Source of the DNA: a virus
Length of the DNA stretch: 55,727 nucleotides
Reading direction: 5' to 3' (one strand)
Virus genome (UHGV): UHGV-0036148
This document shows, one piece after another, positions 7,687 through 54,317 of the stretch. The notes under the pieces were generated by a model. The model did no database searches, had not been told where the DNA came from, and saw nothing but the letters and a program-made list of their open reading frames with translations. Position 1 is the stretch's first letter. Each line of letters starts with the position of its first letter. Both the position numbers and the translations under genes were made by a program.

Positions 7687-7708
7687 TTATGTGATCGCAA
7701 TCACAATG
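7687..7708. promoter_or_regulatory. CRP-consensus palindrome TGTGA-N6-TCACA
   Basis: ttaTGTGAtcgcaaTCACAatg, perfect half-sites with 6-bp spacer, in a 100-bp intergenic gap. Confidence 0.45.
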
Positions 7709-20568: not shown

Positions 20569-20786
20569 TGGATAAGATCGGCACAATTCTTATTAATCGT
20601 GAACAAGTGCAAAAAATGTTAGGCGGGCTTAGTAAGTCAGCATTTTTTAAACTGGTTAAAAAATGGAAGGATTCAGGTACTCCATTCCCTGAACCCGTTA
20701 AGGGGATGCCAGCGTTAAAGCGCGGCGGATATCTTTACCGTTATCAGGATGTTATTTCATTTTGTAAGTCAATGGGTTTCATGTAA
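20568..20786 (+). CDS. AlpA/excisionase-family small DNA-binding protein
   Basis: INREQVQKMLGGLSKSAFFKLVKK...PFPEPVKG pattern resembles AlpA/Vis-type HTH; convergent with integrase. Confidence 0.5.
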   Translation: MDKIGTILINREQVQKMLGGLSKSAFFKLVKKWKDSGTPFPEPVKGMPALKRGGYLYRYQDVISFCKSMGFM

Positions 20787-21958
20787 TAATCAGCCAGCTT
20801 ATTCATCGCCTCTATTTGTTCCCTCACATAGTCATACTGATCGTATATAGCAAACATCCCAGCCAGCTTATGCCCCAAAACCTTTTCCGCAACGTGAGGC
20901 GCAACGCCAAGCGCTGAAAGGTTTGTTCTCACGGTGCGGCGTAGATCGTGACACGACCACGACTCGCCGCCCATCCTTATCATTAAATCCCTCGCTGCTG
21001 TTTTCGGTACACTTCTGTCCACTGCTTCATCCCTTCCAGAAAGCACAGGAACGAAGACAAAATCAAAGCTATGCAGATCCATAGCCTCGCGCAATAAAGC
21101 TACGCTAACGTCTGATAAACCGCGTTTAAACTCGTTCCTGTTCTTACTCAATGCACCTGGCACCGTCCACACACAGCTATCAAGATCGAAATGCTCGCGC
21201 CTTGCGTTTGTCAGTTCGCTTGTTCTACATCCGGTGAGTATAATCAGCTTCATCAATATCTGGTTCAGCCGCGCCATTTTTGAACTGTCTATAAGGCTGA
21301 TTAGATGGTGAATCTCTTGTATTGACAAAACGCGTTTCCTTTGCGCCGGGTTTTTGCCTACATCTTTCACACGTAGCAATGATATGTCGTCACGATCCAC
21401 GCGGCGGCGGCGCATGGCGTACTTTATTACCGCCTTCATTCTGTTGAGAACTATCCCTGCCTGAACTGGTGCGCCACCACTGGCTACCTTTCTAAAAACC
21501 CCCTCCCACATCATAGCGTCCATATCATCGACTATATAGCTACCGTATGGTTTTATGACGTGCTTATCTAGCATGCCCTCAACCTGCTTATAATTGACCA
21601 TGTTCCTTGCCTGCGGCGATTCCATGTACTCCCTTACAATATCCTCAACCGTTGCCCGTGTCGTAACGCGGGAAAGGTGCATTCTTTTTGCTACCGATGG
21701 ATCTCGACCTGAGTTTAGCACTTCCTTATGCTCCGCCACCGCCGCCCGCGCTTCCTTGAGTGTTATTTCTCCGTATGTTCCTATCTTCATCCGTCGAGGC
21801 TTGCCGTTGAATCGGTAGCGATACTGGAAGGATATAACTCCTCGCGGGCTTATCCTGGCAGACAATCCGCCAGCGTCCGGTACTTCTTTCGGGCCGTCGT
21901 ATGGCTTGCCGTGGATGTTTCGTAATTTGGTATCTGTAAGCATAATTTTGGTCACCAT
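20744..21958 (-). CDS. int: tyrosine integrase
   Basis: C-terminal catalytic region HDLRRT...LGH...Y; ATG at 21958 (longer upstream-extended frame exists). Confidence 0.85.
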   Translation of the reverse strand: MVTKIMLTDTKLRNIHGKPYDGPKEVPDAGGLSARISPRGVISFQYRYRFNGKPRRMKIGTYGEITLKEARAAVAEHKEVLNSGRDPSVAKRMHLSRVTTRATVEDIVREYMESPQARNMVNYKQVEGMLDKHVIKPYGSYIVDDMDAMMWEGVFRKVASGGAPVQAGIVLNRMKAVIKYAMRRRRVDRDDISLLRVKDVGKNPAQRKRVLSIQEIHHLISLIDSSKMARLNQILMKLIILTGCRTSELTNARREHFDLDSCVWTVPGALSKNRNEFKRGLSDVSVALLREAMDLHSFDFVFVPVLSGRDEAVDRSVPKTAARDLMIRMGGESWSCHDLRRTVRTNLSALGVAPHVAEKVLGHKLAGMFAIYDQYDYVREQIEAMNKLADYYMKPIDLQNEITS

Positions 21959-22256
21959 TTGGTACACACATTTTACGCATGGATAGTACCACGATAGAAA
22001 ACGATATGACACGATAGAATAAATATTTCTTTTAAAATCAAGGTGAAGAGGTAACGATGTGACACGATGTGAAATGATAGAAATGGCACTATCCATTTAT
22101 CTTTTGAATGGGTGGACTAACGAAAAACTGATTTATATTCAACATCTTATGCTTTGTTTTTGCTTTTAATTTATCGATTTGGTCACAATTTGGTACACAA
22201 AAAGAAACGAGGCGTTAGCCTCGTTTCGCGCGGCGATGTTCTTCGCACATCACCTC
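21944..22256. other. attP-like region with direct repeats and clustered short repeats
   Basis: 22-bp direct repeat TTTGGTCAC(C/A)ATTTGGTACACA at 21947 and 22188; multiple ACGATAG/GACACGAT repeats between. Confidence 0.4.
22214..22238 (-). terminator. rho-independent terminator downstream of tail fibre gene
   Basis: minus strand AAACGAGGC-taac-GCCTCGTTT followed by CTTTTTG. Confidence 0.5.
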
Positions 22257-25200
22257 TTATTCTTCGCTTCCGGTCAACTGACTGATAAGCGCTTCAAGTT
22301 TTGCTATCCGCTCATCCATTGCTGCAATGTTAGCTTTCAGGCTTGCGTTCTCCTCTTCCAGTTCAGTGACGCGGTTATCCGTTTCGCGTGCCACCTGGAC
22401 AAGTAAACCAGTCACCGCCGCATAGTCAACATTAAGGTAACGTGTTTCTTCTCGTAGCTCGTTGCCGTCAACGGTCGGACCCTGCAATTCATTACCGTAA
22501 CGAGTAAACGATCCTACGGCTTCCGGTAGCGCCTCCATTACTTCCTGTGCAATAACGCCAGCATAAGGAAGGCCGTTTTCCCTGAGCGTGTAGGTGTACC
22601 CGTTCATTTTGCGGATTGATTCAGTGGCTTCACCTATAACCTGAATGTTATCTTTAAGGTCGCGGTCAGATGATTGGTGAAGTGTCTGGCATGTGATATT
22701 ACCGCTAACATCAAACATTTGACCTGATGATGTTTTTTGTGCATAAAACAGGTATCCGGCAGATGTTCCAACCTCAAAAACGTTTTGTCGATCACTTGAC
22801 CCCCAGACCCTGATGCTAACTGGCAGTTCTGAATTACCTGAATTAAGTAAAGCAAAACGACTGCCCGTCCCTGCTTGTTTTCTAATTACTAAATCGGCAG
22901 TTGAGTTAACCTCATCTTTGTTGATGGTTAGCGCCTGTTTTGTAGCACCTTTGACAGTACCACTTAGTAATTGAACTGCGCCGTCGTCGCCATTTAACAG
23001 CACTTGAGCGCTGCTTCTGTGGTTTTTCAGGAACAACATTTTGCCTGTGCTTTCTGATGTGCCTACCGACCACGCCGAATTGGTTCCAGTGCTATCAACA
23101 CCGCGTACAGTACAATTCATCGCGCTATAATCTGACGTACTTCCAAGTACATCAACGCGCCCGCCACCTAATTTTGATGGAGCCGCCGAGGTTAACGACC
23201 TGACGGTTACATCCTGATTTCTTCCTGAAACAACAATCTGACTCCATGCAGACCAGTTACCATTTTCACAATAGCGAACGTATATTTGTTTCGTGTCTGT
23301 GCCAACAAGGGTTTGCAAGTTTGTATAATCTGAATCCGTGATCTTACGAATTGACTCTACACGAAGCAAAAAGTTGCCGCCTACGCCGTCAGGCTTATTG
23401 GTAATATTTGCACCGCCTCCGGCAGTTCTGCATTGATAGTATTTAACTGACCCTTTATCTGTGCCTTTTATGGTCAGATTATTAAGATCAACAGCCACTT
23501 CAGAAATGCTTTCAGGCTCAATTGCTCCCGCCATACCTGCGTTAAATGTGGCAAGGTCAGAAAAGGTTGTTTTGCCGCCTACCGTTACCCCGCTATCGAG
23601 TATTGCTTGTGTAATTACTTTGCTGTTTTTTGTGTGGTCAGAATAACTACCAAAATACAAATCACCGTCACCAGCTATACCCAGGTATTTTTGATCAACA
23701 TCATCAACCTTAAACCCAATGGACAAGTTTTTAATTGTGTTGTTGCGCGTTAAAACCAAAGGCGTATGCTGAGATCCTTTGATGCTTACCGTAGTGTTAT
23801 CGGAACTGGTGCTTGTGTTTGCAAATTCTGCGGTGGCTCCGCTGATTTTGTAAGTTACTTTTAGATCGCGGGCCTCAACCCTCCCGTCGTGGCGAACAAT
23901 AAGATCCCCTCCTGTTACGCCTTTTGCGTTTTTGGCCCTGATGCGAACTTCGCCAAGCGTATCAGTATTTGCAGGCGCCCAAACAATGCCGCGCTCACTA
24001 TCATCGTTATTATAAAACCGCAAAGCTGCGATTCCATCGACTGCCCGCAGGAAGACTGACGGTGTACCTTTTTTGATTGTCAAGTCACCGGTCATTGTAT
24101 CGCCGGTTTTTTTTACCTGCGCATCGTTAGTTACGTTACCAAGTCCAACGTCCGATTTCGACGGCTTATTTTGGGTTCCGTATAGCTCATTAATGGCATA
24201 AGTGCCGCTGTTGAGTCCAGTATCGTTACCAGCGAAAATCTTGACCCTGGCATTTTCGTATTCGATATTAATCGCTGACCACGTATCACCGCACCGCGAG
24301 AATATACCAGAACCGTGGCTATAAATGGTCGCCGTGCTTCCGGTCGGCCTATCACCGCGCCAGAAATGACCACCTTTGTCACGCAGAGCTTTTAATAGTT
24401 CTGTATTGCTCATCTTGCCGTTTGTTGCTATCCCGCTACCGCCAAGACCGAAAGCGCCTGTAAGCATAGCATTAGAAAGGCCCAGATCTGCCTTGCTGGG
24501 TTTGTTTACCTGGTCGTAAATCCTTGCTGCTGGGCTTTCAATATATCCAGCGGGTGCGTCGGCTTGCTTAACAAATCCTTCAGGAATGTATAATTCCGTG
24601 TTGCCAGTCTGCGCCAGCACCGCTACTTTTGTGTTTTTAATATAAGATCGCTGGTAGCACCAGACCTCGATATAGCCGTCACCTTTAACCAGGCCGTAAC
24701 ACATTTGACTATTATTGGGAAGGTTTGGTGAACCGAGTCGGCGAATACTTAAAAATTTAGATATATTTTCACTGGTTACTTCGCCTGTGTCGTTAAGACC
24801 TCGAGCGGAGATCTCTATAAAGTCAATATTCCCGTAACTTAAACCGTAGCCACCGCCATTTGTAACCATTAGCGTTAAGTGGCAGTCTGATGACTTTGGA
24901 TCGCTAAGTTTAGCAATCTTAACGTAAGCGCCATTACCGCTAGTTTCAACAGGCCAAGCACATTGGACCATTGGGCTGGTAAGCCTTCCCATTTGATTCA
25001 GATATTCTTGCGCCCTGTCCTCTGATGTTTTGGCTTTGGTTTCGCTTGTTTTCGCTGCCGTCTCGCTTGCCTTAGCGTTGGTTTCTGATGTTTTCGCTGC
25101 CGTGGCGGATTTTGCAGCCGCTGTTTTTGACGCTTCTGCTGCGTTTTTGTCGGATCCTGTTTTTTGAGCGTTGGCGGTTGATTTGGCTGTTTCTGCGCGA

Positions 25201-25577
25201 ATGTTGGTAAGAAGCTGATCCAACTGACCTTCGCCGCCAAAATCTTCCCACCACTCGACAGCGGAGGCGATTTCTGTTTCCTTGCCCTGGTAGTAACGCA
25301 GGGTTTCAGCTACGTCCTGAGCAAGCCCATCAACTGAGATCGAGTCAGATAGCAGGATGCTGAATTTTGTCCCGGCAGGGATGGCGGGGTTAGCCGCTGG
25401 CGTCACTGACAGTTCAGTGCCGCTTTTAATTTCTGTGATGGTAAAGATCTGTACCGGATTGCCAACAGCAATGAGCGTGCAACCTACACGAATAAGAGAA
25501 AGCGGCGCGGAAAAGTTTGTTCCCGTGCCTTTAACAGTATTGCCGTTAATGGCAACTGTTCCAGTTGTGTAAATCAT
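22257..25577 (-). CDS. tail fibre protein with C-terminal intramolecular chaperone (S74-like) domain
   Basis: 1106 aa; Ala/Lys/Thr low-complexity linker; C-terminal SDRDLKDNI...GYTYTLRENG...GVIAQE motif typical of autocleaving chaperone domains. Confidence 0.8.
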   Translation of the reverse strand: MIYTTGTVAINGNTVKGTGTNFSAPLSLIRVGCTLIAVGNPVQIFTITEIKSGTELSVTPAANPAIPAGTKFSILLSDSISVDGLAQDVAETLRYYQGKETEIASAVEWWEDFGGEGQLDQLLTNIRAETAKSTANAQKTGSDKNAAEASKTAAAKSATAAKTSETNAKASETAAKTSETKAKTSEDRAQEYLNQMGRLTSPMVQCAWPVETSGNGAYVKIAKLSDPKSSDCHLTLMVTNGGGYGLSYGNIDFIEISARGLNDTGEVTSENISKFLSIRRLGSPNLPNNSQMCYGLVKGDGYIEVWCYQRSYIKNTKVAVLAQTGNTELYIPEGFVKQADAPAGYIESPAARIYDQVNKPSKADLGLSNAMLTGAFGLGGSGIATNGKMSNTELLKALRDKGGHFWRGDRPTGSTATIYSHGSGIFSRCGDTWSAINIEYENARVKIFAGNDTGLNSGTYAINELYGTQNKPSKSDVGLGNVTNDAQVKKTGDTMTGDLTIKKGTPSVFLRAVDGIAALRFYNNDDSERGIVWAPANTDTLGEVRIRAKNAKGVTGGDLIVRHDGRVEARDLKVTYKISGATAEFANTSTSSDNTTVSIKGSQHTPLVLTRNNTIKNLSIGFKVDDVDQKYLGIAGDGDLYFGSYSDHTKNSKVITQAILDSGVTVGGKTTFSDLATFNAGMAGAIEPESISEVAVDLNNLTIKGTDKGSVKYYQCRTAGGGANITNKPDGVGGNFLLRVESIRKITDSDYTNLQTLVGTDTKQIYVRYCENGNWSAWSQIVVSGRNQDVTVRSLTSAAPSKLGGGRVDVLGSTSDYSAMNCTVRGVDSTGTNSAWSVGTSESTGKMLFLKNHRSSAQVLLNGDDGAVQLLSGTVKGATKQALTINKDEVNSTADLVIRKQAGTGSRFALLNSGNSELPVSIRVWGSSDRQNVFEVGTSAGYLFYAQKTSSGQMFDVSGNITCQTLHQSSDRDLKDNIQVIGEATESIRKMNGYTYTLRENGLPYAGVIAQEVMEALPEAVGSFTRYGNELQGPTVDGNELREETRYLNVDYAAVTGLLVQVARETDNRVTELEEENASLKANIAAMDERIAKLEALISQLTGSEE

Positions 25578-25620
25578 CTCGATGACTCCATTTTGTTAAT
25601 TAACGGAATAATTCTACCAT

Positions 25621-25642
25621 TTTGTGATCTGTGTTGCATTTT
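25621..25642. promoter_or_regulatory. degenerate CRP-like site upstream of lipoprotein gene
   Basis: tttTGTGAtctgtgTTGCAttt; left half-site perfect, right half degenerate. Confidence 0.25.
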
Positions 25643-25754
25643 CTGCTTACACAAAATGTATTTGTTGATTTATATCAATATACGAAATGTTGTTTTGTCG
25701 GATATTCAAGACACCGGATGAACCGGACGAGCTAACAAGAACGAGGATTAAAAA

Positions 25755-26003
25755 ATGAAAAACATGTTCAAAGTGGTTTTATTCTCTGCGGCTGTAGCTC
25801 TTACTGGTTGCGCTGTTGACAAAGAGGCCGCATTGCATAACCTGCCGAATAGCGGAGTAATTCCACAAGATGTTGTCTATGATGGTGAAGGTCATCTTGT
25901 CTATGACACTGAAAAACTGCCTTATACTGGTCAATGGTGTCATGAACTCGATCACAACATGCGCCGCATCGGTAGCCCTTCTAACTGTGTAGCTAACTAC
26001 TAA
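25755..26003 (+). CDS. small lipoprotein (moron)
   Basis: signal peptide with lipobox LTGC; AGGA SD; opposite strand between J and tail fibre; own terminator. Confidence 0.6.
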   Translation: MKNMFKVVLFSAAVALTGCAVDKEAALHNLPNSGVIPQDVVYDGEGHLVYDTEKLPYTGQWCHELDHNMRRIGSPSNCVANY

Positions 26004-26008
26004 AAGAA

Positions 26009-26032
26009 AACCCCGCGCGAAGCGGGGTTTTT
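26009..26032. terminator. bidirectional rho-independent terminator
   Basis: CCCCGC-gcgaa-GCGGGG hairpin flanked by A-run and T-run, between lipoprotein and J stops. Confidence 0.6.
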
Positions 26033-26034
26033 GT

Positions 26035-29000
26035 TTATCCTGAGAATGAACCAGAACCGCGCGACACTATGACTGTCGGCGAATTTATATAAGCCCCCTT
26101 GTCATTTTGAGCAGATACCTTAATTTTAACTGTAACGCCCCTGCTGGTTACTGCTGCTGAATGCATAACAAGGCGCTCCGTGCCATCCAGTGCTGAATCT
26201 TTTGATGAACCGCCGATTGTTATTGTGCAACCACCAAAACCCTTAACGTTAGCCATAACGCAGATATGTCGGCTATACGCTGCGTCAGATGTGTCATTGT
26301 ATGTTATTACTTTTTCCAGCATCCCATCCCTTAACGTGCTAACGTCAGAACCTGTGTACATGTTTGCAACATCACCGATAAAGGTTTTCGCCTCAAGTGA
26401 ACCGGTAAACTTGCCGCTGTCTGCATGTATTTCACCCCTTACAACAACGTTGTTAAATTCTGATGCGCCGCTTTGTGTTATCCTCCAACCATTGGAACCG
26501 GGGACGAAGTTTGCTGATTTAATTTCATTGACAATTTTAGCCATAGTAATAGAGGCATCTGCAATTTTAGCTGTCCCTATTGATGCATCCTTAATAAATG
26601 CCTCTTTCACATACATTGCGCCGTTAGTGACATAGAAGGGCGATGTATATGCGCCGTTTGCCGCCGTCATTAACACGAAGCGGTCAACAAGGAAAATGCA
26701 CTGCGACTGAAAGTTAGTGCCATCACCAGTCAGGCCAAGCGACATACCTGTTGCGTATTTCATGCCGTTGTTGTCGGTGGCGAGCTTGATTGAATATGTC
26801 GCATCAACATTACCCCTAAAGTCGGTTAACGCTTTAGATGTCGTCTCTATTGCTGTCTTATTCCCGTTAACGGTAACTGTTAGCTGATCAATTTTCGTTG
26901 ACAACGCCTTATCTGCTGTAGCCATTGCCTGCGACCATTCTGTAATGCTTGAGTTTACCGATTCGAAAGACGCTGAGATCTGGCTAAATTTTTCTGCGCT
27001 TGATTCCTCATGCGTAGAAAGTGCCGTTGATACTTCAGACACTTTTGAATTGATCGTACTGGTAAGCGATGCGCTAAGGCCGCTTATTGCGTCTGCGCGT
27101 GCTTTTGTTTCGTCGGCGATGGCTTTGTCCATCCTGGTGACGTTGCTTGTCACTTTATTATCAAGCGTGCTGACACTTGCGCTAACTTCGCTGATAGCTT
27201 GTCCTCTGGCGCTTGTTTCGTCAGCAATTGCCTGATCAAGACGGTTTACGCTGGCTTCAGTCTTCTTATCAAGATTAGTGATCGATGCGCTTACCCCGCT
27301 AATGGCTTCCGCTGTTGCTTTTTTCTCTTCTGCCACAACGTTGTCAATGCGGTCGATTTTCGCGTTGGTTTCCCTGATTCCTTTCTTGTATTGGGCAGAA
27401 AGAGTAACACGCGTGTTGGTTTGAGCGATTGAGTTATTGATAAGTGCAATAGATGCGTTTTGCAGGCTTGCTTTTGCCTGATTTATTTCGTCGCTGTTTT
27501 TGCCAACATTATTTTCAACAGTGCCAAGATTTGCGCTGAGTCCTGATATTGCTTGTGCGCGGGCGCTTGATTCATCGGCAATTGCCTGATCAAGACGCTT
27601 AACGCTGGCGTTTGTGCTGTTCTCAAGCGTTGTTAAATCTGCTTTAACCTCTGTTATTGCGTCGCTTCTTGCCTGCGTTTCATCTGCTATTGCTTTATCA
27701 AGACGGGAAACGCTCGCGTCGGTTTTTCTTTCTAGACTGTCTATTGAGGCGTTCACGCCACTGATTGCTTGTGCGCGTGCGCTGGCCTCGTCAGAAATTG
27801 CCTGATCAAGTCTGCTTACTTCTGATTTGGTGTTGCTTTCAAGTGTGCTAATACTTGCATTCACGCTGCTGATAGCGTCAGTGCGTGCCTTCGTTTCGTC
27901 AGCAATCGCCTTATCAAGACGATTAACGTTACTTGTGACCTTACCGTCAAGTGTGGAAATTGACGCCTTCACACCGTTAATGGCTTCAGTTCTCGCGCTC
28001 GTCTCGTCTGCTATTGCCTTATCAAGACGGCTTATACTTGAGTCAGTTTTCTTGTCGAGAGCTGATACCGAGGCGTTTACTCCACTAATAGCCTCGCTGC
28101 GGGCGCTTGTTTCGTCTGCAATAGCTTGATCCAAACGTTTAACGCTGGCGTCAGTTTTCTTGTCAAGTGCTGAGATATTTGCGTTAACGTCGCTGACTGC
28201 CTGGGTGCGTGCGCTTGTTTCGTCGGCGATAGCTTGATCAAGGCGGTTAACGCTGGCGTCAGTTTTCTTGTCAAGATTGCTTATTGAGGCGTTTACACCG
28301 TTAATAGCTTCAGCGCGTGCGCTGGCCTCGTCAGCTACTGCGCGTTGCACGCTAGAAATCTGACCTTTGAGGTTTGAATCCATCGTATTCATTTCTGCCG
28401 TGATGGTTTTCAGTGATTCCGCTGTCGCTTTTTTCTCTTCAGCGATAACGTTGTCAATACGGTCAATTTCCGCTTTAGTCTCTGTCCTGCCTTTCTTGTA
28501 CTGAGCGGTAAGAGTTACGCGCGTGTTTGTCTGTGCAAGTGAGTTATTAATAAGAGCAAGTGACGCGTTTTGCATGCTTGCTTTCGCTTGCGCCAGTTCG
28601 CTGCCAACTTTTTCGCTGGACACTTCTAATGAATCAATTCTTGACTCATGCTGACCAATATCATCGGCGTTTTCCTTAACTTTTTTATAAAGATCTTCTG
28701 TTTCTTTTTTTAGCGTATCTGTATCAGCTTTTATTGATCCTGTTTCTGTAATCAGGTTGTCAGTATCATTTCTTAAATCTTCGGTTATGTTAGTCAGGTT
28801 GTCGGTTTCAGTTCTTAAATCGTCAGTTATGTTGGTCAGATTATCAGTTGCAGTTTTGAGGTTGTCGGTAGCTGCTTTTAGTTCATTTGTGGCATTTTCA
28901 ATAACATCCGTGCGATCACCAAGATCTTTGATGTCACCAATCATTTCCTTGAACTGTTCTGAGTTCATCACGTCTTTGGTGACGTAATCGCTGATTTCAT

Positions 29001-31413
29001 CAAAATTCTCTGTCGGCTTACCTGATGCCTCCACAAAGTCAGACACGCCAAAAGCATTGCGTGTGCGCACATAAACGTAATAGGTGTGCCCCGTGTTCAT
29101 GCCGCCAAAAGTCCACTGATGACCACGCCCGGTATATTGTGCCTTAGTGGTTACTGATGCCGGATCGGTGATCTGTTTTTCACCTGAGTAATAAAACTCA
29201 TAACTGGTGTCAGTGGTAAGCGTTGTTCTGCTGATCGGGTAAACTGTAGCCTGAAATACACCGGGAACCCAGTTAACTCCTACCGGGGCCGCTGGTGCAC
29301 CAATAACCAGATCCACAATACTTTCTGCACCCTTCATGCCCGTGTCATTTCTGCCACGGATGCCTAATGAGTAGGTTCCCGCATCAATGCCATAAAAATC
29401 ATAACTGTAATTAGTAGTTTCGTAGTATTTAACTACTGCCCCCGCTGAATTGTATACGCGGATTTCAAAGGTCAGGCGATGAGTTGTCGTCAGTGTTTCC
29501 CATGTTGCGCGGCATTGAACTGTTTCAGATCCAATGTTTAACACCTTCAGGTTTTCAATGTTCGGCACGCGGAAGTGATTAAGCGTATCGTTGTTGACCT
29601 CAAAGATTGCGCCATTATCAACTACAGCCTGTTTGTGCGGGTCATGCTGTGATGCCTCGATCGTGTACACGCTGTTATTTTCTGTTTCTGCCACACTGAT
29701 AATTCGACACAATACGGGTTTTGCCGCGTTAGTTGACACAGCAAATACAGTACCGTTACGAATCCACGCCGGGGCGGATGCAAGGGTAATTTTGTTTCCG
29801 CTAACTCCGGTGATCTGGTGTTTTTTAAATTTGCCGTCACTATCAAGCAGGCTAATGGTGTCGCCAGGGGTGATATATTCAGAATCAACCTTATCGACAG
29901 TGATAACCCTGCCATTGTTTGCCACGATACGACCACCTAGACGGGCGCCAGCGCGGTTATTGTCGAGTATCTCGATAATATCACCAGGGGTGAAGTGAAT
30001 TGCGTCACGGGCCATTTTAAACGTGAATTTAGACGGCTCGCGTTTTGCTGTTTCTATCAGCCATTTGCCAGCGCGGTACGCTTGCCCGCGTGACGTGCAC
30101 CCGAACGCCTCCAACGTGGTTTCGTTATAACCATCGCGGGCGATTAGTTCATCATCTGCCACGTATTCTTTTGATTGCTCCCAGCCGTTTTCCGGGTCAG
30201 TCCATGATACGATCACGGCGTTGTAACACTCTGCAAGCGGAAGACTTGAGCGAGTAAACGCGCCATCAACGACGTTTGCGTTTGTGATGGTGGCAATTGG
30301 ATCCTGTGGTGCATCAATCATCACGGTAAGGCGTTGCCCGTCCCATAACGCGATACCACGGAACATACCTGCAATGTTATCCAGTAGGTCGCGGGCGCTC
30401 ATTTGCTCCGTAATGTAAGCGTTAAGCGTCATGCGAGGTTCAAGGCCACCATAGCCATCATCAACCAACTGATCGCAGTATTGGGAGAGCACGTACAAAG
30501 CGCCATCATCAACATCAATGTAACCAGCATGTTTAGCAAGCCCGAAGCGCTCGTTTTTAACCAGATACCGGAAAATCCACGCAGGGTTATTGGTGTACGC
30601 TTTTTTGAATCCGCCAAGCCATAAACCAGAATACGCGCGCGTTTCTGTGTTGTAGTTATCAGGAACATCAACAATCAGGCCGCGAAGGTGATAGGTACGT
30701 GTAGGCGTATCAGTATATTGATCGTGGTCAATTACCGCGCCAGCTACAGCGGTATGAGGATAAGACAGGTTATCGTCAATTATTTCGCTGTAACTACTCC
30801 ACCGCGTATCATTCCTCAATAGATCGCCGTTGCTGTCTGGTGTTACGCGACGAACGCGAATATCAAATGGTTTTTCATCCGGCGCTTTAATGATGTGAGC
30901 TTCCAGATATTCACCACTTTGCTTGCCGGGGCCAATGTGTATATCCTTAATCAGCGACCACGTAGAAGATAATGACGGTTTAACATCAACCATCAACATG
31001 ACAGATGTATTGTACTGGTTGCCCTTTTCATCTGACTGGACTAGAGCATCGACACCAAGATTTAACCTGACACGGGTAACGTTTGGATCTGAAACAGTCC
31101 TGATTATTGGTGTGTCGTGAGTTACCTTTGCGTTGACAATAACGGTTGATTCGATGGCATTAAAGCCATTAATCGGCGATTGGTCAGCCGTGCCGTTGCG
31201 CCAGGCTACACTAATCCCGGGGATTGATGTATTCCCGTTTGCGTCAGTAACAGGTGTGTCATTAAGCATCACGTCATTCAGTGGCGCTTTCTGGTTTACC
31301 GGACCGTATATCGGCCCTTCACTGAGAATGTCTAAAACACGATAAAACTGTTTGTGATACAGGTTATCGTTCAATAATGTTGGTGTTTTGGCTTTGCCGC
31401 CGCCGCTACTCAT
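26035..31413 (-). CDS. J: host specificity / central tail fibre protein J with expanded repeat region
   Basis: N-terminus MSSGGGKAKTPTLLNDNLYHKQFYRVLDILSEGPIYGPV parallels lambda J; 1792 aa with about ten 35-aa tandem repeats. Confidence 0.9.
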   Translation of the reverse strand: MSSGGGKAKTPTLLNDNLYHKQFYRVLDILSEGPIYGPVNQKAPLNDVMLNDTPVTDANGNTSIPGISVAWRNGTADQSPINGFNAIESTVIVNAKVTHDTPIIRTVSDPNVTRVRLNLGVDALVQSDEKGNQYNTSVMLMVDVKPSLSSTWSLIKDIHIGPGKQSGEYLEAHIIKAPDEKPFDIRVRRVTPDSNGDLLRNDTRWSSYSEIIDDNLSYPHTAVAGAVIDHDQYTDTPTRTYHLRGLIVDVPDNYNTETRAYSGLWLGGFKKAYTNNPAWIFRYLVKNERFGLAKHAGYIDVDDGALYVLSQYCDQLVDDGYGGLEPRMTLNAYITEQMSARDLLDNIAGMFRGIALWDGQRLTVMIDAPQDPIATITNANVVDGAFTRSSLPLAECYNAVIVSWTDPENGWEQSKEYVADDELIARDGYNETTLEAFGCTSRGQAYRAGKWLIETAKREPSKFTFKMARDAIHFTPGDIIEILDNNRAGARLGGRIVANNGRVITVDKVDSEYITPGDTISLLDSDGKFKKHQITGVSGNKITLASAPAWIRNGTVFAVSTNAAKPVLCRIISVAETENNSVYTIEASQHDPHKQAVVDNGAIFEVNNDTLNHFRVPNIENLKVLNIGSETVQCRATWETLTTTHRLTFEIRVYNSAGAVVKYYETTNYSYDFYGIDAGTYSLGIRGRNDTGMKGAESIVDLVIGAPAAPVGVNWVPGVFQATVYPISRTTLTTDTSYEFYYSGEKQITDPASVTTKAQYTGRGHQWTFGGMNTGHTYYVYVRTRNAFGVSDFVEASGKPTENFDEISDYVTKDVMNSEQFKEMIGDIKDLGDRTDVIENATNELKAATDNLKTATDNLTNITDDLRTETDNLTNITEDLRNDTDNLITETGSIKADTDTLKKETEDLYKKVKENADDIGQHESRIDSLEVSSEKVGSELAQAKASMQNASLALINNSLAQTNTRVTLTAQYKKGRTETKAEIDRIDNVIAEEKKATAESLKTITAEMNTMDSNLKGQISSVQRAVADEASARAEAINGVNASISNLDKKTDASVNRLDQAIADETSARTQAVSDVNANISALDKKTDASVKRLDQAIADETSARSEAISGVNASVSALDKKTDSSISRLDKAIADETSARTEAINGVKASISTLDGKVTSNVNRLDKAIADETKARTDAISSVNASISTLESNTKSEVSRLDQAISDEASARAQAISGVNASIDSLERKTDASVSRLDKAIADETQARSDAITEVKADLTTLENSTNASVKRLDQAIADESSARAQAISGLSANLGTVENNVGKNSDEINQAKASLQNASIALINNSIAQTNTRVTLSAQYKKGIRETNAKIDRIDNVVAEEKKATAEAISGVSASITNLDKKTEASVNRLDQAIADETSARGQAISEVSASVSTLDNKVTSNVTRMDKAIADETKARADAISGLSASLTSTINSKVSEVSTALSTHEESSAEKFSQISASFESVNSSITEWSQAMATADKALSTKIDQLTVTVNGNKTAIETTSKALTDFRGNVDATYSIKLATDNNGMKYATGMSLGLTGDGTNFQSQCIFLVDRFVLMTAANGAYTSPFYVTNGAMYVKEAFIKDASIGTAKIADASITMAKIVNEIKSANFVPGSNGWRITQSGASEFNNVVVRGEIHADSGKFTGSLEAKTFIGDVANMYTGSDVSTLRDGMLEKVITYNDTSDAAYSRHICVMANVKGFGGCTITIGGSSKDSALDGTERLVMHSAAVTSRGVTVKIKVSAQNDKGAYINSPTVIVSRGSGSFSG
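27150..28420 (-). repeat. tandem ~105-bp coding repeats within J
   Basis: recurring gcttgtttcgtc(a/g)gcaat(t/a)gc(c/t)tgatcaag...aacgctggcg units; protein repeats LDxAIADETSAR... Confidence 0.7.
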
Positions 31414-31964: not shown

Positions 31965-32644
31965 TTGTCAGATCTCCATATTGAATTGGTCTGTCGAACA
32001 TACGCGGGCCGCATTTGCTCGCGGCGGCTTAACAGTCCGGCATTGTCATGATGCAAAACAGTGTTATCGCCCAGGTAAATCATCGCGTGGCATGGGTCAG
32101 CGCCTTTAAACGGCTGGCGGATAATCACATCACCGGGCTGAATGTTTTGCGCGTCAACCATGAAAAACCCGTTCAATGGCAGGTTTTTTATGTACAGGTT
32201 TTCCCCACGCAGCCACCACCCATCGCGGCGCTCAAAGTCAGGCAGATCCACGCCGCAAAGGTGATAGGCGTCACGAAAAAGCGAGTAGCAGTCTGTTTTC
32301 CCGTGCTCAAATTTACGGCCTAACAGGTGCGCTACCGGGCGGAATTTTCTTACCCTGCCACCGGAACATAAAAACCACGGTAGGCCGGAAATAACCTGCT
32401 GTTGTCGATCCCGTGCTGACAATACCAATGAATCGTTAGTATGTGAGTGGAAAACGGCTGTTATAACGCCTAATTCGTCAGCTTTGATATAATCGTCAGG
32501 CGAGATTTTAAAGCTGTTGTGCGGCGTTTCAGACACGTTTAAACACGGGTAAAAATAATCGTTATCTATCACCAGCCCACACACTTCTTCGTCAGGGTGG
32601 GCCGCTGCATAGCGAATCATTTTATCTTCAAGTGCCATAATCAA
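31907..32644 (-). CDS. K: tail assembly protein K (JAMM/MPN + NlpC/P60-like)
   Basis: CGLVI, AVFHSHTN (JAMM HxH), AMIYLGDNTVLHH parallel lambda K. Confidence 0.85.
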   Translation of the reverse strand: MIMALEDKMIRYAAAHPDEEVCGLVIDNDYFYPCLNVSETPHNSFKISPDDYIKADELGVITAVFHSHTNDSLVLSARDRQQQVISGLPWFLCSGGRVRKFRPVAHLLGRKFEHGKTDCYSLFRDAYHLCGVDLPDFERRDGWWLRGENLYIKNLPLNGFFMVDAQNIQPGDVIIRQPFKGADPCHAMIYLGDNTVLHHDNAGLLSRREQMRPAYVRQTNSIWRSDKCSNLDLRAIFEDITARCV

Positions 32645-33345
32645 CCCACCTTGCTGGATCCAGGGAAACAGGAAATTGGTAACGGATTAGGGCGCGGAAA
32701 ACGCAAACGGCAACCGCTTAGGCGGTGGCTGCATTTATCCAGCTTCGGATCACTGGTTAGCTCGTCTTTGTCAGTAGCTACGGGGCCGCCACTGTATCTG
32801 CAACCGTCGCCGCGATATTGCCACTGGCAAACGTCAGCGAGAATTGTGCGCCCGGGGATAACCGCCTTGTCAGCATCAATTGGCGTTGACAGTTCATATT
32901 GCACCTGGTCGGCTGTTTCTTCGCTCATCGCCTCAACGACGTAAAAAGATACAGCCTCAATAGATGGATCTGCATCTGGATTGCCGTTGGGGAAGTTAAC
33001 AGCGTCCAGGTATTTTACTTCCACCTGGCGGCGCGTAACCTTCATTCCTCGCAGGTCGTTAAAATCGTTGTTCATCCCGGTGATTAGCCCGCCAATGTTG
33101 GCTACTACCATTTGCGGGCGCGAGTAAACGCCTTCGTTTTTCATTTCGAAGCCAGTAGCCTCGATTGGGTAGCTGTTGTAAGTCACTCCCTTCCAGATAA
33201 CCGGGCCGTAATAGCCATTCGCGCCGGAATGGAAGCGGATAACCTCGCCACCCAGGGGCGTGAGGTCTAATTCAAACAAATCAATTACCGCGCCGACTCC
33301 GGCATCGACGGAATCAATAATCATTTCTGTAGGTATGCTGCGCAT
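32641..33345 (-). CDS. L: minor tail protein L
   Basis: YLDAVNFPNGNPDADP, LSTPIDADKAVIPGR, QWQYRGDGCRYSG, KCSHRLSGC parallel lambda L. Confidence 0.85.
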   Translation of the reverse strand: MRSIPTEMIIDSVDAGVGAVIDLFELDLTPLGGEVIRFHSGANGYYGPVIWKGVTYNSYPIEATGFEMKNEGVYSRPQMVVANIGGLITGMNNDFNDLRGMKVTRRQVEVKYLDAVNFPNGNPDADPSIEAVSFYVVEAMSEETADQVQYELSTPIDADKAVIPGRTILADVCQWQYRGDGCRYSGGPVATDKDELTSDPKLDKCSHRLSGCRLRFPRPNPLPISCFPGSSKVG

Positions 33346-33361: not shown

Positions 33362-33383
33362 TTTGTGATCGCCGTCACGCTAA
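33362..33383. promoter_or_regulatory. degenerate CRP-like site in divergent region between L and plus-strand moron cassette
   Basis: tttTGTGAtcgccgTCACGc. Confidence 0.25.
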
Positions 33384-33473
33384 ATCATACCAAAACGGTT
33401 GATAGCGATTTTTACAATATGTATATTGTACTCAAAAGGAAGCATGGTTAACAAAATGGCGCGGAGGTGTGAG

Positions 33474-33629
33474 ATGACTGATAAGGTGTGGAGGTTGACG
33501 GTATTCCTGTCAGGCGGCAGGGAAATGACTGTGGCTCTGTATAAAGACGAAGGCGAGGCACTGACTGACGCGCTTTTACTTACTGAAGATGACCGCGTTT
33601 TGGGATACAGGATCGAACCTGCCAAATGA
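33474..33629 (+). CDS. hypothetical small protein (51 aa), moron cassette gene 1
   Basis: GGAGGTG SD; plus strand inside minus-strand tail module. Confidence 0.35.
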   Translation: MTDKVWRLTVFLSGGREMTVALYKDEGEALTDALLLTEDDRVLGYRIEPAK

Positions 33630-33642
33630 AAGGTTAACAAAA

Positions 33643-33993
33643 ATGCAAAAATACAGATTAGACGTGTGGACTGATAAATGTGAGTGGGAAAGCATAGGAC
33701 TATTTGACACATTCGAATCAGCGCGTAATGAAGGTTGTGAATTGCTCCGCTGTTGGTCTGGTGCTCGTGATTATTATGTTATTCCGGTGCAAGTGCCGGA
33801 TAAGGTGGAAGAGATGAACCCGAAAGATATTAACTTTAACGTCAATGTTGAATTTGCCGACTCTATGGATCAGGCTTGCCCTGGTGAAATACACGCAAAA
33901 GGTTTCCCGGCAGACAATCCGCAAGCAAAACGCGAATACGAAAAAGCGGCAAAAGATTTCTGTATCGACAATTTGTCTGCGTTCGATAAATAA
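33643..33993 (+). CDS. hypothetical protein (116 aa), moron cassette gene 2
   Basis: ORF following gene 1 on plus strand. Confidence 0.4.
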   Translation: MQKYRLDVWTDKCEWESIGLFDTFESARNEGCELLRCWSGARDYYVIPVQVPDKVEEMNPKDINFNVNVEFADSMDQACPGEIHAKGFPADNPQAKREYEKAAKDFCIDNLSAFDK

Positions 33994-34002
33994 GGCGGCA
34001 AC

Positions 34003-34251
34003 ATGGGGCGGCGCAATCACGGCGATTATGTGTACACGTTGAAACAGGCCGCCCGCCTCGTTGGTTATCATGAACACGAATTTATTGATTTGCTGATTGA
34101 GCGCGGGATACTGTACCAGGTCTGTTTAACGCTGTACCCGAAAGCGAAATACCTACAGGAAAAGTTATTCATCATCATGACGGATGAAAACCAGGTTAAC
34201 CATTCATTCGTCACTGATAAGGGCGTTAATTATCTGCGTGATAACTTATAG
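34003..34251 (+). CDS. hypothetical protein (82 aa), moron cassette gene 3
   Basis: AAGGCGG SD; plus strand. Confidence 0.4.
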   Translation: MGRRNHGDYVYTLKQAARLVGYHEHEFIDLLIERGILYQVCLTLYPKAKYLQEKLFIIMTDENQVNHSFVTDKGVNYLRDNL

Positions 34252-34261
34252 GTGACAGATT

Positions 34262-34378
34262 ATGAAAATAGAAGTTTTGGCGCTAATAATAATGGGATTG
34301 ATAGTATTTGGCGTTCATGCTGTAGATCTGGACTGGAAAACGATAGCGGAAAATATAGCATTAATGGAAATGGAATAA
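34262..34378 (+). CDS. mini membrane/secreted peptide (38 aa)
   Basis: MKIEVLALIIMGLIVFGVHA... hydrophobic N-terminus; GGTGA SD. Confidence 0.3.
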   Translation: MKIEVLALIIMGLIVFGVHAVDLDWKTIAENIALMEME

Positions 34379-34382
34379 TAAT

Positions 34383-34410
34383 AACCCCGCTTCTCGCGGG
34401 GTCGTGTTTA
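34383..34410. terminator. hairpin terminator closing the plus-strand moron cassette
   Basis: CCCCGC-ttctc-GCGGGG hairpin; T-rich on minus side, TCGTGTTTAT on plus side. Confidence 0.45.
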
Positions 34411-34605
34411 TACGCCATCAACCAAAAATAAAACTTCCTTCCCTTCCCGGGATCTACACCCCACGTACCCATCGCCAACGTCGTGAAGATACCATATATC
34501 GCCGTTGTCAGCTTTTACAGTAAGGTCGTTGATCTCATAGTCGTCAAACAATGTAAAAGCGTCAGTTTTGTCAACTACACAAGTCCCGTACATATCAACC
34601 CCCAT
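34408..34605 (-). CDS. hypothetical protein (65 aa)
   Basis: ORF immediately downstream of M. Confidence 0.35.
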   Translation of the reverse strand: MGVDMYGTCVVDKTDAFTLFDDYEINDLTVKADNGDIWYLHDVGDGYVGCRSREGKEVLFLVDGV

Positions 34606-34958
34606 TAGCCGACAACTTGCTCAAATGTTGCGTTTAGCGTGTATACAGGCCCATCTTTGGTCATGCTCCAGCTACGACAAACAAAAAGCCTCTGCACGTT
34701 ATCCATAGATGGCGACCAGTAAAAAGCCTCGATAGCGCCTCGCGCCCTCAAGAATGCTTCTGCCTGGATCGCCACGTTCCCTCCATCACCACATCCCGCG
34801 CTACTGCCTTTAAAAACCAGGGTGTAACTATCAAGTAATGTGTTAATCCCTTTCGCCTGGCGTTGTTCATACCCATCACCAAGTTTAATGACAGATACGT
34901 TTGGCTCCCTGGTCACGCTGTAGCTTCTTTGCGGCGTCCATCTGAAAACTTCTGGCAT
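34605..34958 (-). CDS. M: minor tail protein M
   Basis: FRW...LGDGYEQRQAKGIN...EQVVG parallels lambda M; GGGGGAAT SD. Confidence 0.8.
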   Translation of the reverse strand: MPEVFRWTPQRSYSVTREPNVSVIKLGDGYEQRQAKGINTLLDSYTLVFKGSSAGCGDGGNVAIQAEAFLRARGAIEAFYWSPSMDNVQRLFVCRSWSMTKDGPVYTLNATFEQVVG

Positions 34959-54295: not shown

Positions 54296-54317
54296 TACAT
54301 TGTGATACAGATCACAT
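54296..54317. promoter_or_regulatory. CRP-consensus palindrome TGTGA-N6-TCACA
   Basis: cattgTGTGAtacagaTCACAtttt; perfect half-sites, 6-bp spacer, A/T flanks as in CRP consensus. Confidence 0.45.

Follow-up and report, generated by a model that had tools for sequence, protein, structure and literature searches.

A coliphage lipoprotein gene convergent with J very probably encodes a superinfection-exclusion protein specific for maltoporin LamB

T5 Llp and the Cor proteins of T1, phi80 and N15 are outer-membrane lipoproteins of about 60 residues, encoded beside the receptor-binding gene, that carry an intramolecular disulfide and inactivate the phage's own receptor from the periplasmic side. 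They target FhuA, a plug-bearing TonB-dependent transporter whose allostery is known, whereas LamB is a porin. The exclusion lipoproteins Rtp45 (target LptD) and Lpp021 of phage mEp021 (target OmpA) are encoded in a module adjoining J. Rtp45 attaches to the periplasmic interface of LptDE, shifts the loops EL4/5 out of place and has a hairpin that reaches up the barrel lumen; a receptor that is not TonB-dependent can thus be blocked from its periplasmic interface. For the phages that target LamB, such as Bas23, it was stated that they 'likely do have SE lipoproteins' (van den Berg et al., PNAS 2022, PMC9586334). The same authors asked how SE lipoproteins could act on a receptor lacking allostery; no allostery is known in LamB, which does not belong to the TonB-dependent transporters, and its block by a periplasmic ligand was noted there as unexplained.

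A lipoprotein acting against LamB-dependent phages has since been described by Negrete-Mendez et al. (Front Microbiol 2025, PMC11893012), where gp116 of phage mEp010 is named Lpp010 and classed as a 'type-C' lipoprotein. According to these authors, Lpp010 expressed from an IPTG-inducible Ptac plasmid excludes mEp010, mEp044, mEp554 and, unexpectedly, lambda, while mEp013 is not excluded and the OmpA-dependent phages mEp021 and mEp515 are reported to be inhibited only by the other lipoprotein, Lpp021. The phages mEp010, mEp013, mEp044 and mEp554, like lambda, are all given there as requiring lamB. The readout was plaque formation on the Ptac overexpression strain, and the accessible part of the article holds no data on adsorption, localisation, binding or expression in lysogens.

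The DNA analysed here (the window) is the whole stretch of 55,727 nucleotides of the virus genome UHGV-0036148. Phage mEp010 covers about 83% of its first 22 kb at about 90% identity, the integrase and the cI repressor included, and its tail region is 85–88% identical to those of mEp013, mEp044 and mEp554; the window therefore represents a temperate coliphage of the 'mEpimmI' group. The length of 55.7 kb and the location of the integrase gene directly after the tail fibre gene suggest a whole genome in phage order and not an integrated prophage. The initial annotation had described, between J and the tail fibre gene and on the opposite strand to both, an 82-aa ORF with a lipobox signal peptide, an SD of its own and a bidirectional terminator. 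All these elements were found in our analysis, as follows.

20744-22096, minus strand: integrase ORF, 450 aa as listed, directly after the tail fibre gene, as in packaged phage genome order
22257-25577, minus strand: side tail fibre gene, 1106 aa, with a C-terminal Peptidase_S74 intramolecular chaperone; divergent from the lipoprotein gene, 177 bp away
25578-25754, no strand assigned: intergenic region common to the lipoprotein and the divergent tail fibre genes, 177 bp, almost invariant among mEpimmI relatives
25616-25611, minus strand: candidate extended -10 promoter for the tail fibre gene, -10 TAGAAT, the best candidate on either strand
25623-25638, plus strand: CRP-like sequence TGTGATCTGTGTTGCA, 2 mismatches to TGTGA-N6-TCACA, not counted as functional
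25743-25747, plus strand: Shine-Dalgarno sequence GAGGA, 7 nt before the ATG, kept in six relatives
25755-26003, plus strand: lipoprotein gene, ATG start, 82-aa precursor, stop included; orthologue of Lpp010 / mEpimmI type-C, phrog_12984
25755-25808, plus strand: signal peptide M1-G18, as read from the sequence
25800-25811, plus strand: lipobox L16-T17-G18-C19, which fits [LVI][ASTVI][GAS]C
25809-25811, plus strand: C19, the predicted lipidated first mature residue
25809-26000, plus strand: mature protein, 64 aa
25938-25940, plus strand: C62, conserved throughout the phrog_12984 homologues
25986-25988, plus strand: C78, conserved throughout the phrog_12984 homologues
26006-26032, both strands: bidirectional intrinsic terminator of the lipoprotein gene and the convergent J gene, with an 11-bp G+C-rich stem
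26038-26382, minus strand: receptor-binding tip of J, last 115 codons, of the type of LamB-dependent phages
26035-31413, minus strand: J-type central tail fibre gene, 1792 aa, with five Pfam domains of the lambda tip attachment protein J

The terminator fills the 31 bp that separate the lipoprotein stop (26003) from the J stop (26035); T-runs flank the hairpin on both sides, a terminator is called on either strand, and one is annotated at the same place in mEp010, mEp013, mEp044 and mEp554. The integrase ORF is probably started too far upstream in the list, with its true start internal, because the profile matches begin about 45 codons inside it.

The full 82-residue translation of the lipoprotein gene is MKNMFKVVLFSAAVALTGCAVDKEAALHNLPNSGVIPQDVVYDGEGHLVYDTEKLPYTGQWCHELDHNMRRIGSPSNCVANY. 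Its N-terminus reads MKNMFKVVLFSAAVALTGC followed by AVDK, with K2 and K6 in the n-region, then a hydrophobic core and the lipobox, and the residue at +2 is Ala (A20) and not Asp. Across 23 homologues the lipobox Cys is invariant and the +2 residue is A, G or S. The conserved core of the mature part runs PNSGV.P ... DTEKLP.TGQWC.E..H..RRIGSPSNC...Y, and every invariant column of it is found in the window protein. The conservation of both C62 and C78, together with the analogy with Llp and Rtp45, makes it likely that these residues form a disulfide pair. The protein matches the phrog_12984 'lipoprotein' family at E=1.2e-26 over residues 7-82, and tblastn found matches to it in 44 phage records. 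In the comparison with five close relatives, over 15 pairs, dN/dS lies between 0.03 and 0.18, synonymous changes far outnumbering non-synonymous ones, and 25755-26003 is thus a genuine gene under strong purifying selection. The lipoprotein locus is present in only 18 of 5426 complete E. coli genomes, and an identical protein (WP_086611538.1) occurs in a prophage of E. coli strain 2-331 with the annotation 'hypothetical protein'.

Searches of Pfam, NCBIfam and PADLOC with the lipoprotein returned nothing specific, the sole Pfam match being the generic lipid-attachment motif, below the cutoff, and a sequence search of solved structures gave a chance match only (E=0.71). AlphaFold2 models of the full precursor with 23 homologues and of the mature part with 20 were unusable (pLDDT 56 and 50, respectively), and as matches to such models would be meaningless, no fold search was made. 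Published AF models of Llp and Rtp45 are likewise inaccurate.

The nearest relatives of the window protein are the 82-aa proteins of mEp010, mEp044, mEp013 and mEp554, with 94–96% identity. It shares 96% of its 82 residues with Lpp010 and 63 of 64 residues in the mature part, so experiments have already established this function in a protein that is essentially the same. The differences are V4M and A12S in the signal peptide and S46E as the sole mature change; position 46 is variable among the homologues (S, E, D, G or N), and E is also found there in another close homologue. Locus, SD, terminator and phage group are the same for both genes, and the partner J tip of mEp010 is also of the LamB type, although it is only 70% identical to that of the window. 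The suggestion of the initial annotation that this is a receptor-blocking exclusion lipoprotein is therefore supported by the exclusion of four LamB-dependent phages by plasmid-expressed Lpp010, one mature residue apart. We consider it very probable that the product of the gene mediates superinfection exclusion as a lipoprotein specific for maltoporin LamB.

The protein had also been likened to the Cor/Llp type, and this holds for the function and the kind of locus but not for homology. We built an hhalign profile from 23 lipoprotein homologues and compared it with T5 Llp, N15 Cor, Rtp45 and Lpp021 of mEp021. The alignments with Llp and Cor covered only residues 1-22/26, i.e. the signal peptide, and with Rtp45 and Lpp021 the signal peptide was likewise aligned and nothing beyond it. 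The window lipoprotein gave no match to phrog_1119 at E<=1, while Llp and Cor match this family at 1e-19 and 3e-32, and no match to phrog_4281 or PF24052. The PHROG families are therefore distinct: Llp and Cor belong to phrog_1119, Rtp45 and Lpp021 to phrog_4281 / PF24052, and the window protein and gp69 of 9g to phrog_12984, with no cross-hits. By sequence, the protein thus does not count as homologous to Cor or Llp, the likeness being functional. The orientation differs as well, since llp is divergent from oad, whereas the window lipoprotein gene is convergent with J. Rtp45 and Lpp021 differ from the window protein in being a separate sequence family with other receptors. In mEp021 the Lpp021 gene (gp81, record L009, 1762-1980) fills the genomic slot that is held here by the LamB-type gene. 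Lpp021 and Rtp45 (record L012, 3688-3918) are members of one family despite their different receptors.

In a filter-free HMMER profile search of 1.84 billion representative proteins, three genuine clusters only were recovered, and none of these representatives was a remote relative bridging to Cor or Llp. The phrog_12984 family is thus a small one, restricted to enterobacterial phages and without detectable remote kin. Its members with 50–60% identity to the window protein are found in Seuratvirus (CAjan, Seurat, Bas21-24), Nonagvirus (9g gp69) and Dhillonvirus (EP23, HH3, PNS1). These virulent phages share with the window the invariant core, the two cysteines, the convergent position, the homologous J tips and the LamB receptor, but in their proteins the linker that follows the lipid-anchor cysteine has three residues fewer; an exclusion function has been predicted for them (PMC9586334). 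A homologue of about 57% identity was also seen in two IMG/VR contigs of about 28 kb (L045, 2986-3204, and L047), in an A+T-rich context with no J nearby; a megablast search of the L045 locus against phage records gave no match. The signal peptide of this homologue lacks a canonical lipobox (..ILLCTNAFA/NTNE..), so it may be a soluble periplasmic version.

The lipoprotein gene lies directly after J and on the opposite strand in mEp010, mEp013, mEp044, mEp554, MagusPhagus, Bas21, Bas22, EP23 and 9g, and in the same loci the genes for the lateral tail fibres come after it. Of the 32 loci recovered from IMG/VR, 30 have the convergent end of a J gene of the same tip family 28–65 bp away. The J tips of the carriers (last ~115 residues) form one homologous family with sub-types. 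The first comprises those of the window, the mEp phages, Bas22, HK97 and 9g, the second those of Bas21, EP23 and MagusPhagus, about 28% identical to the first, and a further divergent variant is present in record L046. The window tip is 83% identical to those of mEp013 and mEp044, 70% to that of mEp010 and 59% to those of KurtStettler, HK97 and Bas22, and has no relationship to those of lambda J (14% identity) or of the OmpA-dependent mEp021; the BLAST alignment of window J with lambda J ends short of the tip.

In all eight carriers for which the receptor is known from experiment (mEp010, mEp013, mEp044, mEp554 and Bas21-24) it is LamB, the evidence for Bas21-24 coming from the BASEL S5 Table, with complementation and RB-TnSeq hits in lamB and malT. 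FhuA, the receptor that a Cor/Llp likeness might bring to mind, is rejected on these homologies, the J tip of the window matching those of LamB-dependent phages. Sequence comparison thus indicates that the lipoprotein gene travels with a LamB-specific J tip as a receptor module. The linkage is not absolute, however: HK97 has a J tip of the same type followed by a 208-bp gap with no lipoprotein homologue, so that such a tip can occur without the exclusion gene. The two partners also differ in their rates of change. The mature lipoprotein of the window is 98% identical to that of mEp010 and 92% to that of MagusPhagus, versus 70% and 28% for the J tips, and the mEp-type and Seuratvirus-type lipoproteins are each found with either J-tip sub-type. 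A lipoprotein far more conserved than the tip next to it fits a ligand of an invariant host surface.

With the Seuratvirus-like phages CSP1 and CSP1C the window shares a segment, 25902-26382, of 83% nucleotide identity. It spans the lipoprotein gene from about codon 50 (its 3' third), the terminator and the last ~115 codons of J, and looks like a mobile receptor module delimited by recombination. In the last 150 codons of J (26038-26487) there are 25 positions at which mEp013 differs from all three excluded mEp phages; the window J carries the mEp013 residue at 12 of these, the residue of the excluded phages at 9 and another residue at 4. By its sequence the window tip is therefore a mosaic, in which about half of these residues are specific to the escaping phage mEp013. 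Elsewhere in J, its middle part (27000-28600, residues ~950-1475) is a long array of imperfect repeats, ..DKKTDASV.RLDQAIADETSAR..AISGVNASIS.L.., the length of which varies among the relatives, whose J proteins have from 1478 to 1828 aa.

Both strict and permissive scans of the plus strand upstream of the lipoprotein gene gave no convincing sigma-70 promoter, and the mEp relatives, with their near-invariant intergenic region, likewise have no good one on this strand. The initial annotation had pointed to a degenerate CRP-like site in this region, and this claim failed. The window contains 33 sites with no more than two mismatches to TGTGA-N6-TCACA versus 23 +/- 4 in shuffled sequences (33 being reached in 2 of 100 shuffles), so the occurrence at 25623-25638 is at the chance level and is not evidence. 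The scans gave no -10/-35 pair downstream of it on the plus strand, and it is absent from the virulent and distant relatives. A lipoprotein promoter activated by cAMP-CRP thus finds no support, and neither does the attractive idea of a LamB blocker co-regulated with the CRP-dependent lamB. Two perfect matches to TGTGA-N6-TCACA lie elsewhere in the window (7690-7705 and 54301-54316). In the virulent relatives a strong sigma-70 promoter is located directly upstream of the gene, e.g. TTGACT-N16/17-TATATT in Bas21 and Bas22, which, by analogy, fits an early gene like T5 llp.

The region upstream of the lipoprotein gene also holds a TTG-initiated ORF of 42 codons (25593-25721, plus strand), for which the mEp records give a hypothetical protein. 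As its starts and lengths (37–42 codons) vary from phage to phage, we take it for a probable overcall inside a conserved regulatory region. A second block on the plus strand is embedded in the tail operon, where four small ORFs (76, 134, 82 and 59 aa; 33399-34431) sit between an L-like gene (32641-33345, minus strand) and an M-like gene (34605-34958, minus strand). Conservation of this block extends to the mEp phages and to MagusPhagus, three of its ORFs match PHROGs of unknown function, and a CRP-like sequence with one mismatch, TGTGATCGCCGTCACG (33364-33379), is found just upstream of it.

In E. coli, lipoprotein precursors are processed by Lgt, LspA and Lnt and then sorted by LolCDE, LolA and LolB, Asp at +2 being the signal for retention in the inner membrane. 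The precursor encoded in the window would, judging from its sequence and this established pathway, be exported and, once lipidated at C19, processed by signal peptidase II. With Ala and not Asp at +2, it should follow the Lol pathway to the inner leaflet of the outer membrane, where the triacylated 64-residue protein would face the periplasm, probably with a disulfide bond introduced by DsbA. The mature protein, probably in its C62-C78-bonded form, would then bind LamB, which would stay in place but no longer serve most of the siphophages that depend on it. The analogy with Llp-FhuA and Rtp45-LptDE suggests LamB as the direct target and binding from the periplasm; as in those cases, a ligand on the periplasmic side of the trimer may alter the outer face of LamB. 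The exclusion of lambda despite its non-homologous tip points to the shared receptor and not to a phage protein as the target. The lysogen would gain protection against superinfection, and in the virulent relatives the lipoprotein would also stop the waste of progeny on infected cells and debris. Points that count against LamB-specific exclusion are the escape of mEp013 although it uses LamB, the occurrence of the HK97 tip without a lipoprotein, the lack of a convincing upstream promoter and the fact that LamB has no allostery known so far.

The step at which infection is arrested may be viewed differently. J might still bind LamB, with a later event being blocked (tail-tip opening, tape-measure insertion or passage of the DNA through the periplasm), in which case adsorption would be normal and ejection abortive. 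The plaque assays, as presented in the accessible part of PMC11893012, do not separate adsorption from ejection, the escape of mEp013 shows that LamB is accessible to at least one tip, and a periplasmic location would suit interference with a penetrating tail tip. Nevertheless, we regard such a block as unlikely, since Llp and Rtp45, the two structurally solved cases, both prevent the binding of the receptor-binding protein, and the exclusion tracks the receptor type across the unrelated tail tips of lambda and the mEp phages. The idea that the protein reaches the cell surface by flipping and there covers LamB from outside, which was raised in PMC9586334 for exclusion lipoproteins with non-TonB-dependent receptors, seems less probable still. 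The later Rtp45-LptDE structure is an instance of periplasmic binding at just such a receptor, the sequence carries no known surface-export signal, and the lipoprotein is conserved whereas the J tips that face the variable outer loops of LamB evolve fast.

Even less can be said for the two explanations that dispense with LamB exclusion as the proper function of the window gene. The allele may be inactive or serve another role, e.g. as a moron tuning maltodextrin uptake via LamB with exclusion as a side effect, given the S46E change in the mature part, the failure of the scans to identify a promoter and the fact that a LamB ligand could also affect sugar flux. We find this highly improbable in view of the variability of position 46, with E occurring in another close homologue, of the strong purifying selection, and of the retention of the gene, under a strong sigma-70 promoter, in strictly virulent phages, for which the tuning of host nutrients would have little point. 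An indirect effect, in which overproduction of the lipoprotein causes envelope stress and thereby lowers LamB without any specific target, could be suspected because the published assay (PMC11893012) employed an inducible plasmid, but is barely credible. According to the same paper, mEp013 needs LamB and yet plates on the cells producing Lpp010; LamB must therefore be present and functional. It has been neither removed nor closed altogether, and this speaks against an overexpression artefact as well. Lpp021 under the same expression is reported there to exclude only OmpA-dependent phages, and a tight linkage of the gene with J tips of the LamB type is seen in three phage lineages that are not related to one another. 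Specific exclusion through periplasmic binding to LamB thus appears to be the best reading of the data.

LamB is a plugless trimeric porin, and its inactivation may differ from the Llp mode and be entangled with an arms race between J tip and lipoprotein within one phage group, a suggestion that we make tentatively and with rather low confidence. One possibility is that a part of the lipoprotein, threaded up the LamB channel from its periplasmic end, changes the shape of the outer loops and leaves LamB usable by some J alleles. From this point of view, the window J could be an escape allele able to superinfect the lysogens of its relatives, while its own lipoprotein excludes these relatives.

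The finding itself is already known, as the orthologue was tested in the 2025 paper and the family was predicted in papers of 2021–2022, and our analysis adds little biology beyond the former. It links the mEpimmI 'type-C Lpp' with the unnamed lipoproteins of the virulent LamB-targeting BASEL phages, and contributes the count of eight LamB users among eight carriers with a known receptor, the contrast between the conserved lipoprotein and the fast-evolving J tip, and the mosaic structure of the window tip. A product labelled 'hypothetical protein' in RefSeq and GenBank can accordingly be named as a LamB-specific superinfection-exclusion lipoprotein, at the level of probability given above. Three unrelated families of small lipoproteins, Cor/Llp, Rtp45/Lpp021 and phrog_12984, now occupy the slot beside J.
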